DNA from: an uncultured delta proteobacterium
GTDB taxonomy: Bacteria > Desulfobacterota > Binatia > Bin18
NCBI GenBank assembly: GCA_963733195.1
Contig: CAVTCR010000074.1
Span: forward strand, 1 to 64,000
Direction: 5' to 3'
Length of the DNA: 64,000 nucleotides
The stretch's first letter is position 1, and each line of letters opens with the position of its first letter. The position numbers and the translations under genes are program-made. Of the stretch, positions 7,587 through 17,804 are shown in pieces. The notes below the pieces were generated by a model. It saw nothing but the letters and a program-made list of their open reading frames with translations, searched no databases and had not been told where the DNA came from.

Positions 7587-10500
7587 AACGAATCTTTCTT
7601 GTTCGTCTGTTCTTTGCGCTTCGTACTTGTATCGTCCAATCGGAGCAACTTTCGCGTATGAGGTTCTACACTCACGAGGACATATCAAGAAGGCTCTTGA
7701 AGCCTCAGTATTAACATAGACACATCAGTACTCTTAGTCTTGGGTTGAAGCCCTTGGCTCAGACGATCAAGTCTTTCCGGAATTTCTCACGTCCACTCAG
7801 GAAATTTGGACTGTCAGTGAACTCATCAAGCTACGGCGCAGAGCAAGAAGACAATCTCCCTGGCTCGCGGTTTCTGCACCATTTCTACAACCCGGTGAAC
7901 GGTGATCCGTTGACCGATATTACTGGGAACGGCCTCTTTGCAACAACGCTACGGTTTGGAAACCCCACGCTGCCATTGGAGACCTCGCCGGATTGGGCGC
8001 TCCAAGACGGCACAGTGCGATCAGTCGGACAAGATTTCTCTTTTAACGATGCCCGGCGATATTTCTTTGAAGCTCTGAGTGGAACCGGATTCTTAGGTGC
8101 GCGTGCAGTGGGGCGCGCCGAAAGGTTCGGCCTTATGTTTCAGAGCTTAGGCCATGTCATTCATCACATTCAGGATATGGCTCAGCCCCAACATGTGAAG
8201 AATGAAGCGCATCCCACCGTAAAGTTCCAGCCACTAATGAGGTGTTCTATGCTCCTGGTGGTTTGTACGAGCATTATACGGATGAAGAGCCAGTGCGCGA
8301 AGCTTTGCCGTTTGCGGGCTACGAACCAGTCTTTTCTCTAGGGGCTGGGAAGGATCACACGACATTTAATACTGCACGGAAGTTTTGGGTGACGAACGAG
8401 ACCGGGCCAAATCAGGGAAATGGCCTTGGCCTGGCCGAGTTTACCAACCGGAATTTCGTGACCTACGGGCACAATTTCACCGGGTCGCTCGAACACATCG
8501 AACCGGACCCGACTTTCCCCAATCCGAATGCGGCAGGAGCCACCATCACTGTCATCAATGCTCCACTCCTGCCGAACATCGCTCCAGAACTCGGACCGCT
8601 CAATGGCAAGATGTACTTCATCGGTACGCCAGTAATCGACAACTACCGGAGTGGAGAATCGGGATTCAATAATCTAGCGAGTACCTATTCCATTTACGAT
8701 GATGATCTCAAGAACTTTCACCTTCACATCAGATGCTTTCCTAATGCTGCAGGCGGATTTCCAGTAGATTGTAACCAAGAGGCAGTATTTAGTGTCAACC
8801 GTTTCACTATGGGCGCGGCGCATCAGTTCCTCATTAAACGCGCAGTGGGTTATAGCGCTGGACTGATTAATTATTTCTTTCGTGGAGTGGGCAAGATCGA
8901 CCTGGTACCGAACCCGCAAGACCCCAGTGGGTACGTGATTGAGAATAACAGCGAAGAAACCATGACAGGAACGTTCTATCTCTACTACGATGACCAGGAA
9001 GATACCCGCTGGCTCCATCAGACGTGGCCAGCCACTGGAGGAATTGATGCCCACGGGAAAAAAGCAGTCCCAGGCTTCGCTCCGCCGACTGATCCCAATC
9101 GTCTTCCGAAGACCCCTGGTCAATATCTTTTGGTCTTCAAAGGTCAAATGGGATTCGAGGGGGAGAATCCTTCTATTCCCAACGCAAACTTCGCTGTCGC
9201 GGCGAACTGGTGAACCTTGGCGCCGGCGGCCTTATTGTGACTTCCGGGGGAGATGCACGCGGGTTTGCCGTGCCGGGAACGGTGGCGCAGTGACGATTGA
9301 AACTGGTGCGAGTCTGACAACGGCACCACCGGCAGCGCAAGCCCTGAACATCAATGCGGCGGATACCCTGACCCTAAGCAGTAGAATCGTCCACTACTCA
9401 CCATCACCGTTAAAGGCACGTTGGAACTTTCAGGGGACGTCACTCTCAGTTCAGATGGCCCGGTGGTGGTTTCTGGCATCATTGAGACGCGCAGCACAAC
9501 CAATCCCCAAGATGGGGCGAATCTGACCATCGAGGCTGCGGGCCCGATTATTGTGAGTGGCCGGATCGATACGTCCGGACACAATGCCGACCTCGTGGGG
9601 CAAGGGGATCAGGAGGGGGGTCATGGAGGGAATGTCACCATTCGCACGACTTCAACCAATACGTTTGTCGTGCCGACTATCATCACGCGCGGTGGCGATG
9701 CAGCGTTTATCTATCCGCGTGATCCTGCGCAACAGAACTGGACTGGTGGACACGGTGGCGATATCACTATTACGACACAGGGAACGACCCCTGGCGTCGC
9801 ACTCCAGTTCGGCGGGGAACGGTTGCTCGATAGTGCGGTTGACCCGCTACCACAGCAACAAGGAGTTCATGAATTACCGACACGGACGACCTTTCATCGT
9901 GGGTTGTTGACCACTGGTGGTTACGGTGGCCAATTTGGCGGACTAGATGGCATCAACGAAGCCGGAGCACCAGGTGGCAATGGCGGGAAGCATTACGGTT
10001 ACCTGTCAGCAACCCGCCCAAGTGCAGTTTGCGGAAACTGATCTCTTTACTGGTGGGAATATCGACGTTCTGCTCAAATACGAAACTGTAGTAGTCTTCG
10101 CGAAAGGCGAACGGCCTCGGTTTCCGATTCTCGTCCAACGCACGGGTTCCATGGGCGGGAGAGGCTCCTACGGCGGGACAGTTATCAATGGTGGCGACGG
10201 TGGTCCTGGCGGAGCGGCTGGGGCGATCAATATGAGTTCTACCTGTACATTGACACCTGCGCCCGCCACGTTCACTGACCCACCCCACTCAGCACCGCTT
10301 TTTGACGGTGTCGATCCACGCGGAGGCATCTCCAGCAGACTGCCAATAATAGAGGCGTTTGATACCGCTGGCGCGCGACTCTATACCCTGCAAGCGTTTG
10401 GCGGTGGTGGTGGAATTCCGGGCGGAAGTGCATTCACATTAGCACGTTGCTCATCAGATGATTCGGCTTGTTCGGTAGAGGATGGGGCAAACGCATGTCC

Positions 10501-10660
10501 GCTACTGCCAAACGGCTCGACCCAACTCTGTATACCCGTTCCGGGTATCGAGCCGAGTCCTGGTAATTATGGTCCACGTGGCGCTGACGGACCGGTCTCG
10601 TGCCTCACGTTAGGGTTGACGCCACCGACGCCGCCAGAGGAGGGGCTCATCTGCCAGTGA
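7583..10660 (+). CDS. Secreted zinc-dependent phospholipase C/P1-nuclease-like protein with Gly-rich and Cys-rich C-terminal extension (frameshifted)
   Basis: Signal-like start MKRIFL; mature start approximately AYEV..HED; RFLHHFYNP; GHVIHHIQDMAQPQH; GLAEFTNRNF; RAVGYSAGLINYFFRG. ORFs 7745-8341, 8242-9213, 9421-10041 and 9947-10660 overlap; the join across 9210-9420 is uncertain. Confidence 0.6.
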
Positions 10661-10663
10661 GGA
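10315..10663 (+). repeat. Direct repeat copy 1 (3' end of PLC-like gene)
   Basis: Aligns without gaps to 15850-16198; about 37 mismatches by manual count. Confidence 0.95.
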
Positions 10664-10953
10664 CGACGCGCTTGACCGTGCACGTGTCGACTACCACCCA
10701 GCGGCAACGAGCGATGGCTTCTTCTTTGCCTTTGCCATTGCTCTGGGCGATTACAAACCATAATTGCCAGGACTGCACCAGAGCCCAGAAGCCAAGAGTG
10801 CTTCGTCACGGAGCCTGCCTGAGTGCTTCGTCAGGCTCAGGATCAACTCCGTGTAGTTAAGTCTTACTGTCCCTCTGGTACCTCACGACTAGCCCCACAT
10901 TGAAAGTGTTGGCAGACAACCTTCATAGGACTGTAGCTCCTTTTGTGCCTACC

Positions 10954-11050
10954 GAGGCTGTAGAAAAAGTCTCTTTTGAAAAATTGACCCTTGCAAACCA
11001 AAAATTTGCTGACACGAAAATTCAAAATTCTGGGGTTTTCCTACAGCCTC
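10954..11050. mobile_element. 97-bp MITE-like element with terminal inverted repeats
   Basis: GAGGCTGTAGAAAAA ... TTTTCCTACAGCCTC (14/15 inverted match); AT-rich non-coding interior. Confidence 0.7.
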
Positions 11051-11146
11051 AACGCGCACCGTCACGGGCCGCCGCCCACACCGTAGCCGTTCGCGTTCGG
11101 CAGAAACCGCAAACGGGCGGCAGTCACGTGGACGAGATTGTTAAGT
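11047..11146 (-). other. attC-like site A
   Basis: Minus strand: R'' ACTTAAC ... CACGTGACTGCCGCCC / GGGCGGCGGCCCGTG ... GTT; lies 21 bp after the methyltransferase stop. Confidence 0.65.
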
Positions 11147-11167
11147 GCTACGCGTAACACCGCGCTG

Positions 11168-12019
11168 TTAAGCCCGACCAGCCCCGATCAGCATCTCGGC
11201 GTTCATCACCAACTGCCCATTGGACTCGAATTCTGCCAGCCGTGTCTGCACCTCCTCCCTTACCACCCGTCGACTTGATTCGGGCAGCGCCCGATACGCC
11301 TGCGGTATCTGTCCCGTCCCGGCTTCGATAGGGGCCCAGTAGTCATCGAACGACTCGATGACCCCTTGGCGTGTCTCTCGCTTCACCCGGACGTCGCGAA
11401 AGCCTGCTATCTTGAACAGGTGTTCGAGCCGCTCAGTATCGGCCAACGCGAAACCGAGATGGAGGGCGTCGCGTTGATCGGGAAGATGGTGGCTGAGCGT
11501 GTCAGCGAGTACGCCCCACATCGGTGCCCGGTCTGGGGTAGAGATGACACACACTGCGGTACACCCGCCCGCACGAAGGACGCGTCGGAACTCCGTGAGA
11601 CCCCGCGCGGGATCTGGGAAGAACTGCAAACCGAGCTGGCACACGACAGCATCAAAGCTGCCATCTCTGAACGCCAGCGCTTGGCCGTCCGTGGCCACGG
11701 GCTGAAACGCTTCCTCGCCAAGCCGGGTGCGTGCTGCCGTGAGCATCGCCGGCGAGATGTCAGCGCCAATTACGTGTCCCGCCGGTTTGACGACAGTCAG
11801 CGCTGCCAACGCGGCCTCGCCTGGTCCGGTGGCGACATCGAGCACGCGGTCTCCGCCAGCTACCTCAGCCGCAGCCAACACCGCTGGCACGAACAGCCGC
11901 GACCAACGACCGATGTACTGATAGTACGCGGAGTCGTCGACGGACCGTCCGGCTGCGGCGTGAAGTCCCGATCCGAAGTTCACGCCCGTTGGTCCCTCAC
12001 GGTTTTCTGGTGTATCCAT
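11168..12019 (-). CDS. Class I SAM-dependent methyltransferase (UbiE-like)
   Basis: VLDVATGPG motif I; FDAVVCQLGLQFFPD. Confidence 0.9.
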   Translation of the reverse strand: MDTPENREGPTGVNFGSGLHAAAGRSVDDSAYYQYIGRWSRLFVPAVLAAAEVAGGDRVLDVATGPGEAALAALTVVKPAGHVIGADISPAMLTAARTRLGEEAFQPVATDGQALAFRDGSFDAVVCQLGLQFFPDPARGLTEFRRVLRAGGCTAVCVISTPDRAPMWGVLADTLSHHLPDQRDALHLGFALADTERLEHLFKIAGFRDVRVKRETRQGVIESFDDYWAPIEAGTGQIPQAYRALPESSRRVVREEVQTRLAEFESNGQLVMNAEMLIGAGRA

Positions 12020-12128
12020 AAGTCCCTCCGCGCCGTGTGCCTAAAAAAATACCGTGTCCATTCCCATCACGGATATTAGGCAGTTCTCATTACAAAGATA
12101 CCACCTGATCTTCCTGTCTACTGTGAGC

Positions 12129-12228
12129 ACCTAACGCCCAGCGATCACCGCGAGCCGCCCAGACGCGACCTTTTGGCTTCAGCAGCATCCGCAACCAGGC
12201 AGCGATACGGTGGCGCGCCAGATTAGCC
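12129..12228 (-). other. attC-like site B
   Basis: Minus strand: GGCTAAT...CCACCG / CGGTGA...GTTAGGT; 100 bp; 30 bp after the higA stop. Confidence 0.55.
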
Positions 12229-12258
12229 CTGTCTTCAGCATGTGGCCGTACTGAACAC

Positions 12259-12561
12259 TCAGGCGACTGCCTTGAACGGCTGCACTTCGCGGGCCACCCG
12301 TTCGCCGAGCTCATCTTCCGTCACATCCATGTCGTACCGACTTTGCAGATTCAGCCAGTAACGAGGGCTTTGTCCAAAATAGCGCCCCAAGCGTAAAGCT
12401 AGCTCTGCGGTGACTGGGCGTTTCCCATGGACGATATGGCTAATGCGCATCGCTGGCACTGCGATATCGTGAGCCAATCGGTATTGCGACAGTCCCAGCT
12501 CGGCCAAGAGTTCCTTGAGATATTCGCCCGGATGGACGGGGGTAATGCGCGTCTTAGACAT
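12259..12561 (-). CDS. higA: HigA-family antitoxin (HTH)
   Basis: PVHPGEYL...LSQYRLA...AELALRLGRYFG.SPRYWLNLQSRYD. Confidence 0.92.
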   Translation of the reverse strand: MSKTRITPVHPGEYLKELLAELGLSQYRLAHDIAVPAMRISHIVHGKRPVTAELALRLGRYFGQSPRYWLNLQSRYDMDVTEDELGERVAREVQPFKAVA

Positions 12562-12574
12562 AGGTTCTCCTTAA

Positions 12575-13559
12575 TAGACATTATGCGAAATAAGCTACAA
12601 TGGGTTGGTGCTTGAATATGAACGATTGAAAAAAGACCGACGGCGATTGTTGGCGTTGACGGGGTTGACCCGCAGAGAGTTTGAGGCGTTGCATCAGGCA
12701 TTTCGTACCGCCTATGCGACCGCGTACCCAGGAGACAAAACTGCGGACGGCCGGGTCCGCAAGCGAGAGGCCGGAGGGGGGCGCAAGGGGCAGCTGAGCA
12801 CGACGGAGCAGAAACTGCTGTTTAGTCTGGTGTATCAGAAGACCTATCCGCTGCAGGCCCTGCTGGGTGAAGTCTTTGGGCTGAGCCAGTCGCGCGCGAA
12901 CCGGTGGATCCAGCGGTTGCTGCCGATTCTGAAGCAGGCGCTGGACGATTTGGGCGTGCTGCCGACCCGCGAGCCTGACAAGTTTGCCCGCTGTGAACGC
13001 CGCCACTCGGAGGGGACGGAACTGATTATCGACGGCACCGATCGGCGGCGGCAGCGCCCGAAAAACCCAGCACAACAGGTCTTGCACTACAGTGGCAAGC
13101 AGAAAACGCATAGTGACAAGAATGTTGTGGTGGTCAATGCCAAGACCAAGCGCGTGGGCTATTTGAGTCAGACGTATGCCGGGAAAATGCATGACAAAAA
13201 GATCGTCGATACCGAACCGATTCGCTATCCGCCGGGCACGATCCTGTATCAGGATACCGGCTTTCAGGGGTATGCCCCCAAAGTGCAGCAGACCCACCAA
13301 CCGAAAAAAAGCCGCGCAAGGGCGCGTTAACTCGTGGGCAAAAGCGCCACAATCGCAAACTGTCGCGCGTCCGGGTCCGCGTCGAGCATGCCTTGGCCGG
13401 GGTGAAACGCTCCCGCATCGTGAAGGAAGTCTTGCGCAATACCAGAGCGGACTTTTCAGACTTGGTAATGGTCGTCGCATGTGGATTACACAATCTCCGC
13501 GTGCGGTACCGTAAACGGCGGCTGCAAACATGAACGAAAGTTATTCCGCATAAAGTCTG
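12575..13559 (+). mobile_element. IS element, IS5-like (HTH_Tnp_4 + DDE_Tnp_4)
   Basis: Inverted repeats TAGACATTATGCGAAATAA / TTATTCCGCATAAAGTCTG flank the transposase. Confidence 0.88.
12605..13533 (+). CDS. DDE transposase with probable programmed -1 frameshift at A7G (~13304-13311)
   Basis: IIDGT, HYSGKQKTH, DTGFQG; the -1 frame continues PKKKPRKG...RVRVEHALAGVKR to TGA 13533. Confidence 0.85.
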
Positions 13560-13637
13560 AATATTGTGCGGGCACTTCCGCACGAATGGACGTTTGAAGA
13601 CTTTCTCGGTATCAGCATCATGGAACGATCGGATCAC
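13560..13637 (-). pseudogene. higB: HigB toxin N-terminal remnant
   Basis: MIRSFHDADTEKVF...PHNIQ, cut by the IS; the rest of the gene is absent on the other side of the IS. Confidence 0.8.
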
Positions 13638-13701
13638 TCTTGAGAGTAAACAGATCGTTTACGATACATCAAGCTTGCTCAAGCAGGGCGAACGCCCCTC
13701 T

Positions 13702-13802
13702 CACTAACGCCTCCGCCTCTGCCTCCGCGGCCCAGTTGTATCCTTTCGCGTTCATTCTAATCCTTATGCGGGCCGCGGTCAGGCTGGAGGCGATGGTTAG
13801 AT
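13702..13802 (-). other. attC-like site C
   Basis: Minus strand: R'' ATCTAAC-CATCGCCTCCAGCCTGACCGCGGCCC ... GGGCCGCGGAGGCAGAGGCGGAGGC-GTTAGTG; strong imperfect hairpin with bulges; 40 bp after the amidase stop. Confidence 0.75.
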
Positions 13803-13842
13803 GGCCACGGGTTGCCACACCTGAAGTCTCTCAACATAAGCA

Positions 13843-15379
13843 TCAAACCTTCGGCGGCGGGAGCGTACCGAACTCATTCTCGACGCCCATGCCAATACTG
13901 AGCAGTGTTCGATCACTGTTTACTGGTCCATCGAACTCAAGCCCAACCGGCAGCCCGGCGCGGGTCATCCCAATTGGCACCGATAGGCCAGGGAGCCCCG
14001 CGTTGCTGCCTGGACTGGTATTGCGATGGTCAGGTTGGAAATGTCGGCACCTGCCTTCCGTTGAGCTCCACGGTGTCCTGACCGGTATCGCCGTTTTCGT
14101 TGATTGGCCGCGCCGGCAGTGGGGTCGTCGGGAAGATTATGGCGGCCAGCTCCTGCTGCGCAAAATTGTCCGCATAGGTTTTCTGGAGCTGCGGGCGAAG
14201 AACGTTGATCGCAGTATCGTACACACCTCTCTGAATCGTGTTTGCCACGGCCAGTAGTCCAGCAACGTCCTTGCTTGCGACGTGTTGCAGTACGTCGTTG
14301 ACGGTGATGCCGTCACCCGTGGCAGCGAGGTACGCCCCGAGGTCAGGGCCGAATTCGTAGAGGACGATCGGACGTCCAGAGTTTTTGTCGAAATCGCGAA
14401 CAGGCCCCAAGTTCACATCGACCAACACGGCCCCGGCCGCCTTGAGTCTGGCGAGCGCGGACTCCACGCTCTGCGCTAGCTCACTGTCAAGATCCTCCCA
14501 GAAAGGCGTGCGAGGGACTCCGAAGGCAGTAAGCCCTTCAGCAGTACAGGCTGGGGCATAGGTTGGCCAGTGATAACGCTGTCGAGGAGCGCCACGTCCG
14601 CCACGGTGCGACCCATAGGACCGACCGTGTCACGCGTGTGACTGAGTGGGATGACGCCCTGCGCCGAATAGCGCTTCTCACCGTTGCCAACAGAAGGACG
14701 GAGTCCAGCCACACCGCACAAAGCCGCTGGTATGCGCACCGAGCCGCCAGTGTCGGAGCCAAGACCGGCCGGTGCCATGCGCGTAGCGATACCCGCGGCG
14801 GTGCCCCCGCTCTGGAACCGCCGGGAATCATCCTCCGGTCGTACGGATTTCTCACCGCCCCATACGCCGCATTCGTACTGGTGATACCAAGGGCGAGTTC
14901 GTGCATGTTCATCTTCGCCATCAGCAGTGCGCCATTGGAGAGCAACTGCTGGAGCACTGGTGCGTCTTGCTTCGGTCGGTTTTCGGCCAAGCCCTTGCAG
15001 CCAGCCGTTGTCGGGAGCGTTTTTGTGTCGATATTGTCTTTCACGAGTAGCGGCAATCCCGCGACCGGTCCAGGTGCCGCCCTTTTTTTCGCTCCACATC
15101 GATCGAGCGGGCACTCTCTAGCAGGCCGTCTCGGTTGAGTGCGATATACGCGTTTAAATCCTTCAGCCTCTCCGCTCGCGTAAGCAACACTTTCGCGTAA
15201 TCCTCAGCACTGATCTCTCCTCGCCGGATCGCTGTTACGGCCTCCACCGCCGTGAGCGAAACGATATGGTCATCTGACATTGCTGCGATCGCGTCAAGCA
15301 CGGTGTCACCTCCAACAACCTCGCCGCTCACCGCTACCGCGGTGAATGTGGTAATCTTCAGGAAATCGCGTCGATTCAT
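13843..15379 (-). CDS. Tat-exported amidase-signature enzyme (indoleacetamide/mandelamide hydrolase-like), frameshifted
   Basis: MNRRDFLK Tat motif; VKDNI, GGS-SGG, GSDTGGSVRIPAALCG; ends ...FGTLPPPKV*. Confidence 0.85.
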
Positions 15380-15525
15380 GTCGCTGGCCAGGGTCAGTTG
15401 TTTGTTTGGGTTCCTTGCCGTTCTCCAAGTCGCCAGACTCTCAGGTTTCACTCAAGATACTTCGACAACTGCTTCGGCATCCTGTCGCTGGCTTTACGTA
15501 GAGATTATCACTGGGGATGTTGTCC

Positions 15526-15683
15526 GCCTAACGCTATATGGGCTGCCGAATGCTCTGTCGCAATTGCCGCACAGCCATGCAGCCCATCACAACTACGCCG
15601 CCTCACAAGTTGATCACAAAAACTCTTCATCCTGTACCATCTTTGTTGTCGTCCTTGCAAGCGTGACTTGACTCTTGTTAGGC
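15526..15683 (-). other. Decayed attC-like site(s) D
   Basis: GCCTAAC (15526) and GTTAGGC (15677), with internal TGGGCTGC/GCAGCCCA and GCCTCAC..TCAC/GTGA arms; possibly two abutting sites. Confidence 0.45.
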
Positions 15684-15849
15684 TGCAAAATCCTGCAGCC
15701 CAACGTCCGAACTGCTCCCTGCAGGTCACTCGTGCTCAAGACGAGTCCTCACAGACGGACCCCCTCGCCCGTTCTCGCGATGACGCTGGCGGGATCGCTA
15801 GATTCAGCGAGCGGCGTCGGCCTGCATCGCTCATTCAGACGCGAGCGGC

Positions 15850-16198
15850 TCCACGTGGAGGCATCTCCAGCAGGCTGCCGATAATAGAGGCGGTTGATGC
15901 CACTGGCACGCGACTCTATACCCTGCAAGCGTTTGGCGGTGGTGGTGGAATTCCGGGCGGAAGCGCATTCACATTAGCACGTTGCTCATCAGATGGTTCG
16001 GCTTGTTCGGTGGAGGATGGGGCAAACGCATGTCCGCTACTCCCAAACGGCTCCACCCAACTCTGTTTACCCGTTCCGGGTATCGAGCCGAGTCCCGGCA
16101 ATTATGGCCCACGTGGCGCTGACGGGCTGATTTCGTGTGCGGTGTTAGGATTTACGCCACCCTCTCCGCCACAAGAGGGACTCCTTTGTCAGTGAGGA
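15850..16198 (+). pseudogene. Direct repeat copy 2: orphan 3' fragment of a PLC-like gene paralog
   Basis: Encodes PRGGISSRLPIIEA...EGLLCQ*, matching 10315-10660; upstream sequence is unrelated. Confidence 0.85.
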
Positions 16199-16255
16199 GG
16201 TCGTCGTGACTGCGAATATAGAGGAAAGTAGGTGTTGAGCAAAAGCCTCGGTAAT

Positions 16256-17804
16256 TCACTTCAACCGATATCTCGTCCATAAATTGCTAGTCAGCTCAGC
16301 AAGCCGCTCTCCAAGCTCAGGACGTAGCGCATCGGGAAGATAGCGCCAACGCCAGTTGCCTTCAGGCTGGCCGGGCAGGTTCATACGCCCTTCACTACCT
16401 AATCCCAGTACATCCTGCAATGGAATCACTGCCAGAGTCAGCAATCGAACTCCACGCCAGACGGATCAACTGCCAGTGAATGTCCCTTGTATTTCTACGG
16501 TTAACATAGCGTAGGATTGAGGCTCGAGTTTCTGCGCTCGCAGCGCGGAACCATCCAAGCATAGTATCGTTGTCGTGTGTCCCCGTATACACGACATACC
16601 GGGAATCAGGATAATTATGCGGCAAATAGGGATTGTGCGTGTCTCCGTCAAACGCGAACTGGAGGATTTTCATACCAGGAAAACCAAATTGCAGCCGCAG
16701 TGCTTCAACCTCCGGCGTAATCAACCCAAGGTCTTCTGCTATCACAGGAAGTTCCCCAAGTGCTTCATGTACTTGTGAGAACAACGTTGCACCCGGCCCT
16801 TTTACCCATTGTCCGTTCATAGCAGTGTCGTCCTTCGCAGGAATGGACCAATAGGCCTCAAAGCCACGAAAATGGTCGATGCGAACAAGGTCTACCATCT
16901 CGAGGATCGAGCGAACGCGTTGTACCCACCAATCATAAACGGCCGCTACCGGCCGACCGTTCTCATCGTGCCATCGATACAGTGGATTTCCCCACCGTTG
17001 GCCGGTTTCGCTAAAATAGTCCGGCGGAACGCCAGCAACCGATTGTGGAGTATTGGTCTGTGGATCGAGTTGAAAAAGTTCGGGATGTGCCCAAACCTCA
17101 GCACTATCGAAACCAACATAGATCGGCAGGTCGCCGACAATTTTCACGTTGCGTTGATTCGCATATGCTTTGAGTCGGTGCCATTGAGTAAAAAAGAAGA
17201 ATTGCTCGTGCTGGTAAAAAAGGACCTCAGGCGCAAGTTGCATTTTCCAACCATCAAGCGCAGTAGGAAGACGATGAGCGACATCAGTATCCCACGTGTC
17301 CCACGAAGCTTCACGAAACGCCTCTCGTAACGCCATGAACAAGGCATAGTCATCAAGCCACCATTGGTGCTGGTGACAGAACTCGTCAAACGCTGCCTTC
17401 TGGGCTGAAGTCGCAGTGGTCACAAATCGTTCGGATGCCATACGACACAGCGCGGTCTTCAAACGGTTGGTAGTCTGATAATCAGCAAGTCCCTCAGGTA
17501 AAACAGGGCTCGTATCAAGAGCAGTAGCAGGGAGAAGGTTCTCTTCAACCAGCGCCTCGATACTGATCAACAGCGGATTGCCGGCAAACGCTGAGAGTGC
17601 AACGTAAGGAGAATAGTCGACTCCCTCACTCGTTGGCCCAAGAGGGAGGACTTGCCATAAGTGCTGTTGATGAGCAGCAAGGAAATCGACGAAGCGATAG
17701 GCTTCTGGCCCCAAGTCACCGATACCAAAACGCCCTGGGAGTGAGGTCACATGAAGAAGAATGCCACCGGCCCGAGCAAAACTGGTCCTCTTACTGTGAG
17801 GCAT
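16256..17804 (-). CDS. malQ: 4-alpha-glucanotransferase (amylomaltase)
   Basis: GILLHVTSLP, GVPPDYFSETGQRWGNP, RIDHFRGF, AEDLG, YTGTHDNDT; C-terminal frameshift. Confidence 0.95.

Follow-up and report, generated by a model that had tools for sequence, protein, structure and literature searches.

Clusters of attC sites lacking integron integrases (CALINs) have been described as at least two attC sites less than 4 kb apart with no integrase (Cury et al. 2016, PMC4889954). Here we describe such a cluster in the first 64 kb (hereafter the window) of contig C74 (170,550 bp), from the genome of an uncultured soil bacterium of the Binatia. Gene calling presents about 5 kb of this window as unrelated genes and fragments; we find it to be one mobile-cassette array. 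Three hairpins in the region are integron recombination sites (attC) that bound a small, partly decayed set of cassettes, and the three-site cluster, which has no integron integrase of its own, is very probably a CALIN, in a host genome that encodes a full-length integron integrase elsewhere. The type of array is well known, and this is a new instance of it from a little-studied uncultured soil lineage. Like CALINs in the account of Cury et al. (PMC4889954), it has at least two attC sites less than 4 kb apart on one strand, no intI nearby, unrelated cargo, an integron integrase (IntI) elsewhere in the genome and an insertion sequence (IS) within the array. It differs in being small (three sites), visibly decaying and headed by a leader common to five other arrays, a leader that the sections of that paper on CALINs do not mention.

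Sedentary chromosomal integrons with homogeneous attC sites (for example, the Vibrio VCRs; taxon-specific attC models in Ghaly et al. 2021, PMC8352920) resemble the present case in that a single attC family is found throughout the array and the genome and in most members of the bacterial family, and toxin–antitoxin cassettes are likewise found in their arrays (PMC8352920). They differ in that the host's sites are scattered over at least 36 small clusters and do not form one large array. That work modelled 11 taxa, and the host lineage is missing from them as far as its text sets them out. Our search of a library of papers, confined to their text, found none pairing 'integron' with 'Binatia' or 'Binatota'; further attC models specific to a taxon may therefore usefully be drawn from the Binatia lineage. 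Integrons with an inverted integrase, as described in Treponema (PMC4889954), have counterparts at other loci of the host: on C33, C32, C1 and C41, intI genes or fragments are followed on their own strand by attC sites; the likeness holds for those loci, whereas the window array is without an integrase.

Three attC sites and no integrase on the contig

We searched the 6.95-Mb assembly (host genome G000, contigs labelled C1, C33, C74 and so on) with an nhmmer profile of the three sites, iterated once, and with a covariance model, R1, built solely from this genome's members of the family. The sites in the window are as follows.

11146 to 11047, minus strand: attC_1, 100 nt, ACTTAAC...GTTGAGG, ends the methyltransferase cassette; R1 74.7 bits, E 7e-20
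12228 to 12129, minus strand: attC_2, 100 nt, GGCTAAT...GTTAGGT, ends the higA cassette; R1 81.9 bits, E 5e-22
13802 to 13702, minus strand: attC_3, 101 nt, ATCTAAC...GTTAGTG, ends the amidase cassette; R1 68.2 bits, E 6e-18

A preliminary description of this DNA had reported these three hairpins, 100–101 nt long and on the minus strand, 20–40 nt past gene stops; the sequence bears this out, with 21, 30 and 40 nt between the stop of the upstream minus-strand open reading frame (ORF) and the respective site. The core boxes of attC sites have the consensus RYYYAAC (R'') and GTTRRRY (R'). Agreement with it is 7/7 and 6/7 for attC_1 (ACTTAAC, GTTGAGG), 5/7 and 7/7 for attC_2 (GGCTAAT, GTTAGGT) and 7/7 and 5/7 for attC_3 (ATCTAAC, GTTAGTG), and the three sites can be aligned with one another over their full length, central loop included. 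Run with filters off over the 64-kb window, R1 returns the three sites at 68–82 bits (E 6e-18 to 5e-22) and no further match on the cassette strand at E < 0.1; the sole other match below that value covers attC_3 on its opposite strand (19 bits, E 0.0044).

All three sites that the R1 search finds in the window are minus-strand sites, with spacings of 1082 and 1573 nt. A six-frame search of the whole 170,550-bp contig gave no TIGR02249 (integron integrase) match at E ≤ 0.001, which extends to all of C74 the earlier statement that the window holds no intI. These spacings, the single strand and the lack of an intI match on C74 place the cluster within the published definition of a CALIN; the layout of a complete integron, with intI and attI adjoining the cassettes, is absent from the window array. 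Beyond the array on its 5' side the contig continues into malQ, hemB and other genes in synteny with relatives, so an intI is not simply hidden past the end of C74 in that direction; the distal contig end is 10.7 kb from the array.

A family of sites with a covarying fold

Over the assembly the iterated profile gives 70 matches at E ≤ 0.01 on 30 contigs, and R1 gives 69 at the same threshold and 67 at E ≤ 1e-3. Those 67 sites fall into 36 clusters, of which 18 have a single site, 12 have two, 3 have three and the last three have 4, 5 and 7, and neighbours within 4 kb of each other share a strand in 31 of 31 pairs.

We drew the structure of the family from column-by-column pairing in an alignment of 42 full-length members (A2); RNAalifold, applied to the family alignment, returned a partial structure or none and was set aside. 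Covariation serves here as the structural evidence because single-sequence fold energy is non-significant for two of the three window sites. The structure comprises an R stem (CTAAC/GTTAG), a 6–7-bp stem and a 7-bp stem, and the internal loop between the two L stems has 3 nt on the 5' arm versus 2 nt on the 3' arm in 41 of the 42 sequences. Its 19 pairs are complementary in 87.8% of cells, compared with 31–44% when the partner column is slid by 1–3. Double-sided changes occupy 60 cells against 19.7 ± 3.5 in shuffles, none of 500 shuffles reaching 60, and are carried by nine of the 19 pairs (columns 28/87, for example, read CG in 18 sequences, GC in 10 and UA in 6). The L''/L' stems are kept by structure, not by sequence. 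The AAC/GTT columns pair in 35–41 of the 42 sequences, and the spacer between R and L boxes (columns 12–20 versus 94–104) has no consistently pairing columns, so that the family has the unpaired central spacer of attC sites.

On the top strand, the R''–L'' arm carries an unpaired C at column 22 (29/42) and an unpaired A at column 29 (41/42), 7 nt apart, and a C precedes GTT in 41 of the 42 sequences. The bottom strand of attC has been described as bearing an extrahelical G, then a T 6–8 nt on, and also a G after AAC (Bouvier et al. 2009, PMC2727003). Read on the bottom strand, the family columns supply a G followed seven positions later by a T, and AAC is followed by a G, as in that description, and on this structural comparison columns 22 and 29 would correspond to the attC extrahelical bases. 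Extrahelical bases on the bottom strand had been put forward in the preliminary description as something to look for, and the family alignment places a G and a T there at attC spacing.

The family accompanies integron integrases

One full-length integron integrase is encoded in the genome, at C33:20009-20953 (TIGR02249 477 bits versus a cut-off of 265); an alignment of its 362-aa product with the IntI4 chain of PDB 2A3V runs from end to end (E 4e-100). Several fragments lie on other contigs and none on C74. The genome-wide search proposed earlier for intI and similar attC sites thus yields a full-length gene on C33 and ~67 family sites, and the two go together: six of the eight best TIGR02249 loci (on C33, C32, C1, C66, C41 and C62) have family sites 1.3–5.4 kb downstream on the same strand, where the chance of such a site next to a locus is estimated at ~0.03 per locus (~67 sites in 6.95 Mb).

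The association extends beyond this genome. We applied R1 to 51 IntI loci of other species and phyla, chosen solely by similarity to the C33 IntI, and obtained 18 hits at E < 1e-3, distributed over 11 of them. Of these hits, 12 are upstream of intI and divergent from it, six are downstream and co-oriented, and none is placed otherwise; these are the two known integron arrangements. Among 30 relatives, 13 have both the family (R1 E ≤ 1e-3) and IntI (TIGR02249 E ≤ 1e-30), four the family only and three IntI only, and the remaining 10 have neither and gave no hit whatever; the relatives are kin and not independent, and hit counts are rough (124 candidates scored per genome). Within the host's bacterial family, 14 of 18 genomes carry the attC family, five of them with ~100 or more model hits, and in most of these five several integron-integrase genes or fragments are present: this is an integron-rich lineage. 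Four independent lines agree that the hairpin family is attC. For this uncultured soil lineage the picture is of one attC family in most family members, many small clusters without an integrase and co-oriented ('inverted') integrase loci.

Short GC-rich imperfect palindromes after genes, repeated genome-wide, are also what repetitive extragenic palindromic (REP) elements and intrinsic terminators look like, and the hairpins might be read as an ordinary repeat unrelated to integrons: an element like REP or bacterial interspersed mosaic elements, a miniature inverted-repeat transposable element or a transcription terminator. The family is indeed dispersed (~67 copies, 18 solitary), and its hairpins lie just past genes, in a terminator-like position. 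An intrinsic-terminator scan, however, flags none of the three window sites, no T-run occurs at any of them, and a comparison with Rfam yields no hit with E ≤ 1 on any of the hairpins (two sub-threshold listings in the region fall at 10463-10520 and 10691-10740). Family copies are, unlike such repeats, strictly co-oriented within clusters, with AAC/GTT boxes and asymmetric, covarying stems; they stand beside intI in this genome and in 11 unrelated IntI loci, and were not found in the 10 relatives that are also without IntI. An ordinary repeat is already contradicted by these findings, and we hold it to be highly improbable. The CALIN-like array of the preliminary description is instead upheld by the covariance hits, the IntI association, the co-orientation and the lack of an Rfam or terminator match at the hairpins. 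The outcome that it had named as contrary, no covariance hits together with a REP or terminator match, did not materialize: R1 scores are 68–82 bits and the family behaves as attC.

The C33 integron itself has its intI and cassettes co-oriented (the 'inverted' layout). Just downstream of the intI stop lies a candidate attI (L001:1270-1500), in which ACTGCC-GGTTAGGT-GGCAGT comes after five direct repeats resembling GGATATAC, and the first cassette is a RelE/ParE-type toxin–antitoxin pair. Weak TIGR02249 matches on C15 and C77 were rejected as integron integrases, being tyrosine recombinases joined to IS91-type transposases. IS91-family transposase genes (Zn_Tnp_IS91, Y2_Tnp) with a tyrosine recombinase lie inside or just after arrays headed by the leader described below, at C15:400-5300 (L090) and C77:25700-26400 (L067).

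Cassette cargo

The contents of the array, from the leader side to the distal end, are as follows.

15451 to 13843, minus strand: amidase-signature-family gene with the twin-arginine signal MNRRDFLK, in at least four frames (ORFs, Pfam Amidase fragments, NCBIfam)
13637 to 13561, minus strand: start of a 25-codon ORF in the higB position (ORF list)
12573 to 13558, plus strand: IS5-family-like insertion sequence, 986 bp (Pfam HTH_Tnp_4 and DDE_Tnp_4)
12259 to 12561, minus strand: higA antitoxin gene, intact, 100 aa (TIGR02607 94 bits versus a cut-off of 47.7; HTH_3)
11168 to 12019, minus strand: class I S-adenosylmethionine-dependent methyltransferase, intact, 283 aa (Pfam Methyltransf_11/25, UbiE family)
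10947 to 11046, minus strand: AT-rich element directly past the attC_1 R' box, with 10-nt terminal inverted repeats and a fold z-score of -2.96
10719 to 10938, minus strand: distal array end; contains the 21-codon stub (ORF 10926-10864) and a hairpin, plus the opening ~15 codons of a gene found whole on C45

The methyltransferase, which the preliminary description had placed in a cassette, is confirmed there and intact; its NCBIfam matches all fall under the equivalog cut-offs. A homologue occurs in one of the 30 relatives, G005, which belongs to another genus (71% amino-acid identity), and there it sits between two attC sites of the same family in a run of four within 3.8 kb. DNA similarity between G005 and the window runs from 11104 to 12204, starting inside attC_1 and stopping inside attC_2, which is the pattern that would be expected of a mobile cassette. 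Patchy distribution of genes such as this one follows from the region being a mobile-cassette array.

The amidase was described earlier as a twin-arginine translocation (Tat) amidase; the signal and the amidase family hold, and the coding sequence proves to be spread across four or more frames. Four public metagenome runs contain related contigs, 88–95% alike to the window, which differ from it by indels at 15071, 14810-14814, 14519-14528 and 14031, the same places as the frame changes, and that at 14810-14814 removes two bases inside a GGSSGG-type signature. Distant amidase paralogues of the genome were also considered for mapping the frameshifts and dropped as too divergent. Against G002, a relative of the same genus, ~6 kb of neighbouring coding sequence carries one indel (in malQ), compared with four or five in the 1.6 kb of amidase. 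Because these exceed the local background we read the amidase as probably decayed, that is, probably, though not certainly, a pseudogene.

For the higBA pair proposed earlier, higA is present and intact, and differs from another public contig by one mismatch and no gaps; higB has probably shrunk to a 25-codon remnant, cut off by an IS that had been overlooked. The remnant has no profile hit and no paralogue that would confirm it as higB; it is probably what is left of the toxin gene, named from its position, with ~200 nt of a normal higB missing. The IS sits immediately upstream of the higA ribosome-binding site, 11 nt from higA, and has eight further copies in the genome at 71–91% identity, on contigs that include C73, C59, C13, C69, C41, C31 and C22. 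Its transposase is encoded in two frames, one either side of an A7 run. A public 1107-nt metagenome contig matches 12573-13558 with seven mismatches and no gaps. As contigs from other metagenomes that are 99% identical show this arrangement gap-free, the change of frame is a native one and may be programmed.

Past attC_1, R1 finds no fourth attC. The AT-rich element, ~100 nt long, either opens a fourth cassette, one with no attC, or is a module without an ORF; it might serve as a promoter, encode a small RNA or be a cassette devoid of ORFs. Similar stretches occur at C59:238123-238326 (element part 238233-238326) and C79:24495-24597, making three array-associated places. The 21-codon stub noted earlier is indeed an ORF at 10926-10864 with AAGGAG upstream, and it bears no sign of being a gene. 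The hairpin at 10790-10853 was tried as a degenerate attC and rejected, as it gives no R1 match with filters off and no attC-like fold. Neither Pfam nor NCBIfam scans matched any cargo to a resistance gene family.

With frameshifts in the first cassette, an IS and a truncated toxin gene in the second and AAC changed to AAT in the attC_2 R'' box, the array looks like a decaying store more than an active one.

Several observations weigh against reading the region as an attC array served by IntI, or against its decay. The attC_2 R'' box is degenerate (AAT for AAC), and in single-sequence folding of the minus strand the sites have z-scores of +0.39, +1.69 and -2.69, so that attC_1 and attC_2 fold no better than shuffles. 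An ORF ends within 150 nt upstream of 54 of the 67 family sites, compared with 1036 of 2000 random positions, a weak test in a GC-rich genome. R1 hits inside this genome are partly circular, the model having been built from the same family, a circularity that does not affect the hits in relatives or other phyla. At two of the six integrase loci with family sites, C66 and C62, the ORFs are full length and the matches skip TIGR02249 positions ~164/186-239, and these proteins may be other tyrosine recombinases. Public runs hold no clean excision product, in a survey where no run had more than 0.20 of the region's words and uncovered parts are uninformative; a joint of 11078 to 12178 in a public contig was rejected as such a product, since it has 16 foreign letters and a 27-nt side and is not a clean attC × attC junction. 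The amidase frameshifts, finally, could be partly consensus errors, and malQ too shows one frameshift relative to G002.

Proposed mechanism

Each cassette consists of a minus-strand gene with its own ~100-nt attC, in the order amidase (probably dead), higBA (toxin truncated next to the IS) and intact methyltransferase, followed by the attC-less fourth stretch. When the bottom strand (the plus strand of the window) becomes single-stranded, each attC would fold into an imperfect hairpin, with R'' and R' paired, two short L stems and unpaired bases on the R''–L'' arm. An IntI acting in trans, for example the intact one at C33:20009-21097, could then recombine two consecutive attC sites and release a circular cassette, which might reinsert at the attI of a complete integron or at another attC. 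We infer such excision and movement, and the activity of the sites, from the established integron mechanism. No promoter is recognisable within the cassettes, so transcription running in from the leader side would be needed to express them.

A leader shared by six loci

The array is headed by a conserved sequence that recurs elsewhere in the genome.

15745 to 15527, minus strand: conserved array leader, ~200 nt, with two local hairpins, ending at GCGTTAGGC
C77:23184-23401, C56:70303-70519, C15:86-297, C43:20370-20580 and C19:97368-97551: other leader copies (blastn/nhmmer similarity)

The preliminary description had seen decayed boxes at 15526-15704. The boxes exist, and they belong to this conserved leader and not to an attC; as a degenerate attC the stretch was rejected, because it gives no R1 match with filters off and does not fold as one hairpin. 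The copies elsewhere are 82–90% identical to that in the window, and each of the six has a different upstream and chromosomal context. In the genome copies and in metagenome contigs alike, leader similarity stops at or within 8 nt of a GTTAGGC box (GCGTTAGGC), and a public contig diverges from the window at 15528. This box is of the same kind as the box where cassettes join.

The repeated leader is the only element here with the potential to lead somewhere new. It might be a docking site without an integrase (attI-like and used in trans) or a portable promoter that seeded six arrays, with a single IntI loading several chromosomal places, in which case these CALINs would be active satellite arrays and not debris. 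The variety of contexts and the abrupt end at the box would suit this, as would three TTGTGA-like direct repeats that precede the box and the arrangement of sites: in five of the six copies a co-oriented family attC follows within 0.6–5 kb, and in none does an attC lie upstream. However, nhmmer finds no more than six copies, and no leader was found beside intI in the genome, in the 30 relatives or in four retrieved metagenome contigs. The candidate attI beside the C33 intI, with its GGATATAC repeats, looks unlike the leader. The 30 relatives have no leader save for two weak partial hits in G014, three leader-carrying metagenome contigs have no family attC within the 0.9–5.7 kb available after it, and no sigma-70-like promoter was found in it. 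On this balance we consider a docking or seeding role unlikely, and keep to the reading of the array as a decaying CALIN. In one of those metagenome contigs the genes that come next encode a STAND-type NTPase and a PIN protein.

Chromosomal site and contig structure

The whole array is bracketed by 349-bp direct repeats.

10315 to 10663, plus strand: direct repeat copy 1, the 3' end of an accessory gene (repeat search; blastn 89% over 349 nt)
15850 to 16198, plus strand: direct repeat copy 2, a fragment from the 3' end of a gene belonging to that gene's family, between leader and malQ

The gene family of the repeats has no Pfam match and was found in one of 12 relatives searched. Synteny with G002 and with G010 (same family) runs rightwards from ~16,290 and ends there. 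In G002 the orthologue of the gene on host contig C45 directly abuts malQ (G002 C86:5780-5940), and an alignment of the junction places the DNA that is extra in the host at ~10786-16242 (~5.5 kb), comprising the array, the leader and the 349-bp gene fragment. The array may have originated by insertion in trans at a non-attI site or by a rearrangement that split it from an integron; its absence at the orthologous G002 site and the lack of an intI remnant fit both.

The surroundings raise a further question, namely whether a real array is set in flanks that are partly an artefact of assembly or strain mixture, affecting the junction at 10718/10719, the 349-bp repeats and some of the frameshifts; the array would then join C45 distally, and its cargo might be less decayed. 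C45:1-220 is 98% identical to window positions 10938-10719, where C45 ends, and it is a C45-like gene that abuts malQ in G002. On the minus strand, malQ itself changes frame at ~16440-16452, ~60 codons before its end, through a 1-nt difference from the continuous G002 gene; either the consensus carries an indel here or the lesion is real, which bears on the trust to be placed in frameshifts of the contig. Yet the two 220-nt copies differ at 2% of positions, hence both may exist, and the excess of indels in the amidase over its neighbours is accompanied by none in the IS, higA or the methyltransferase. The junction of leader and repeat copy 2 is real, because a public contig bridges 15776-15926 and metagenome contigs L094 and L096 carry leader, spacer and repeat copy 2 as one block. 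An artefact of this extent is possible, though we judge it less likely than not. The distal flank of C74, where the gene end at 10315-10663 stands in place of the C45 gene, may be a second copy, a rearrangement or a strain-mixture join. The 349-bp repeats could stem from duplication, recombination with a paralogue or an assembly join.

G010 has a different insert, of 6.7 kb, at the same variable spot. Beyond the array in the window, at 7745-10660 on the plus strand, lies a large gene region in four overlapping frames (198, 323, 206 and 237 aa), without a Pfam match and glycine-rich toward its end. It may be one frameshifted accessory gene; its homologue in G006 is a 675-aa ORF.

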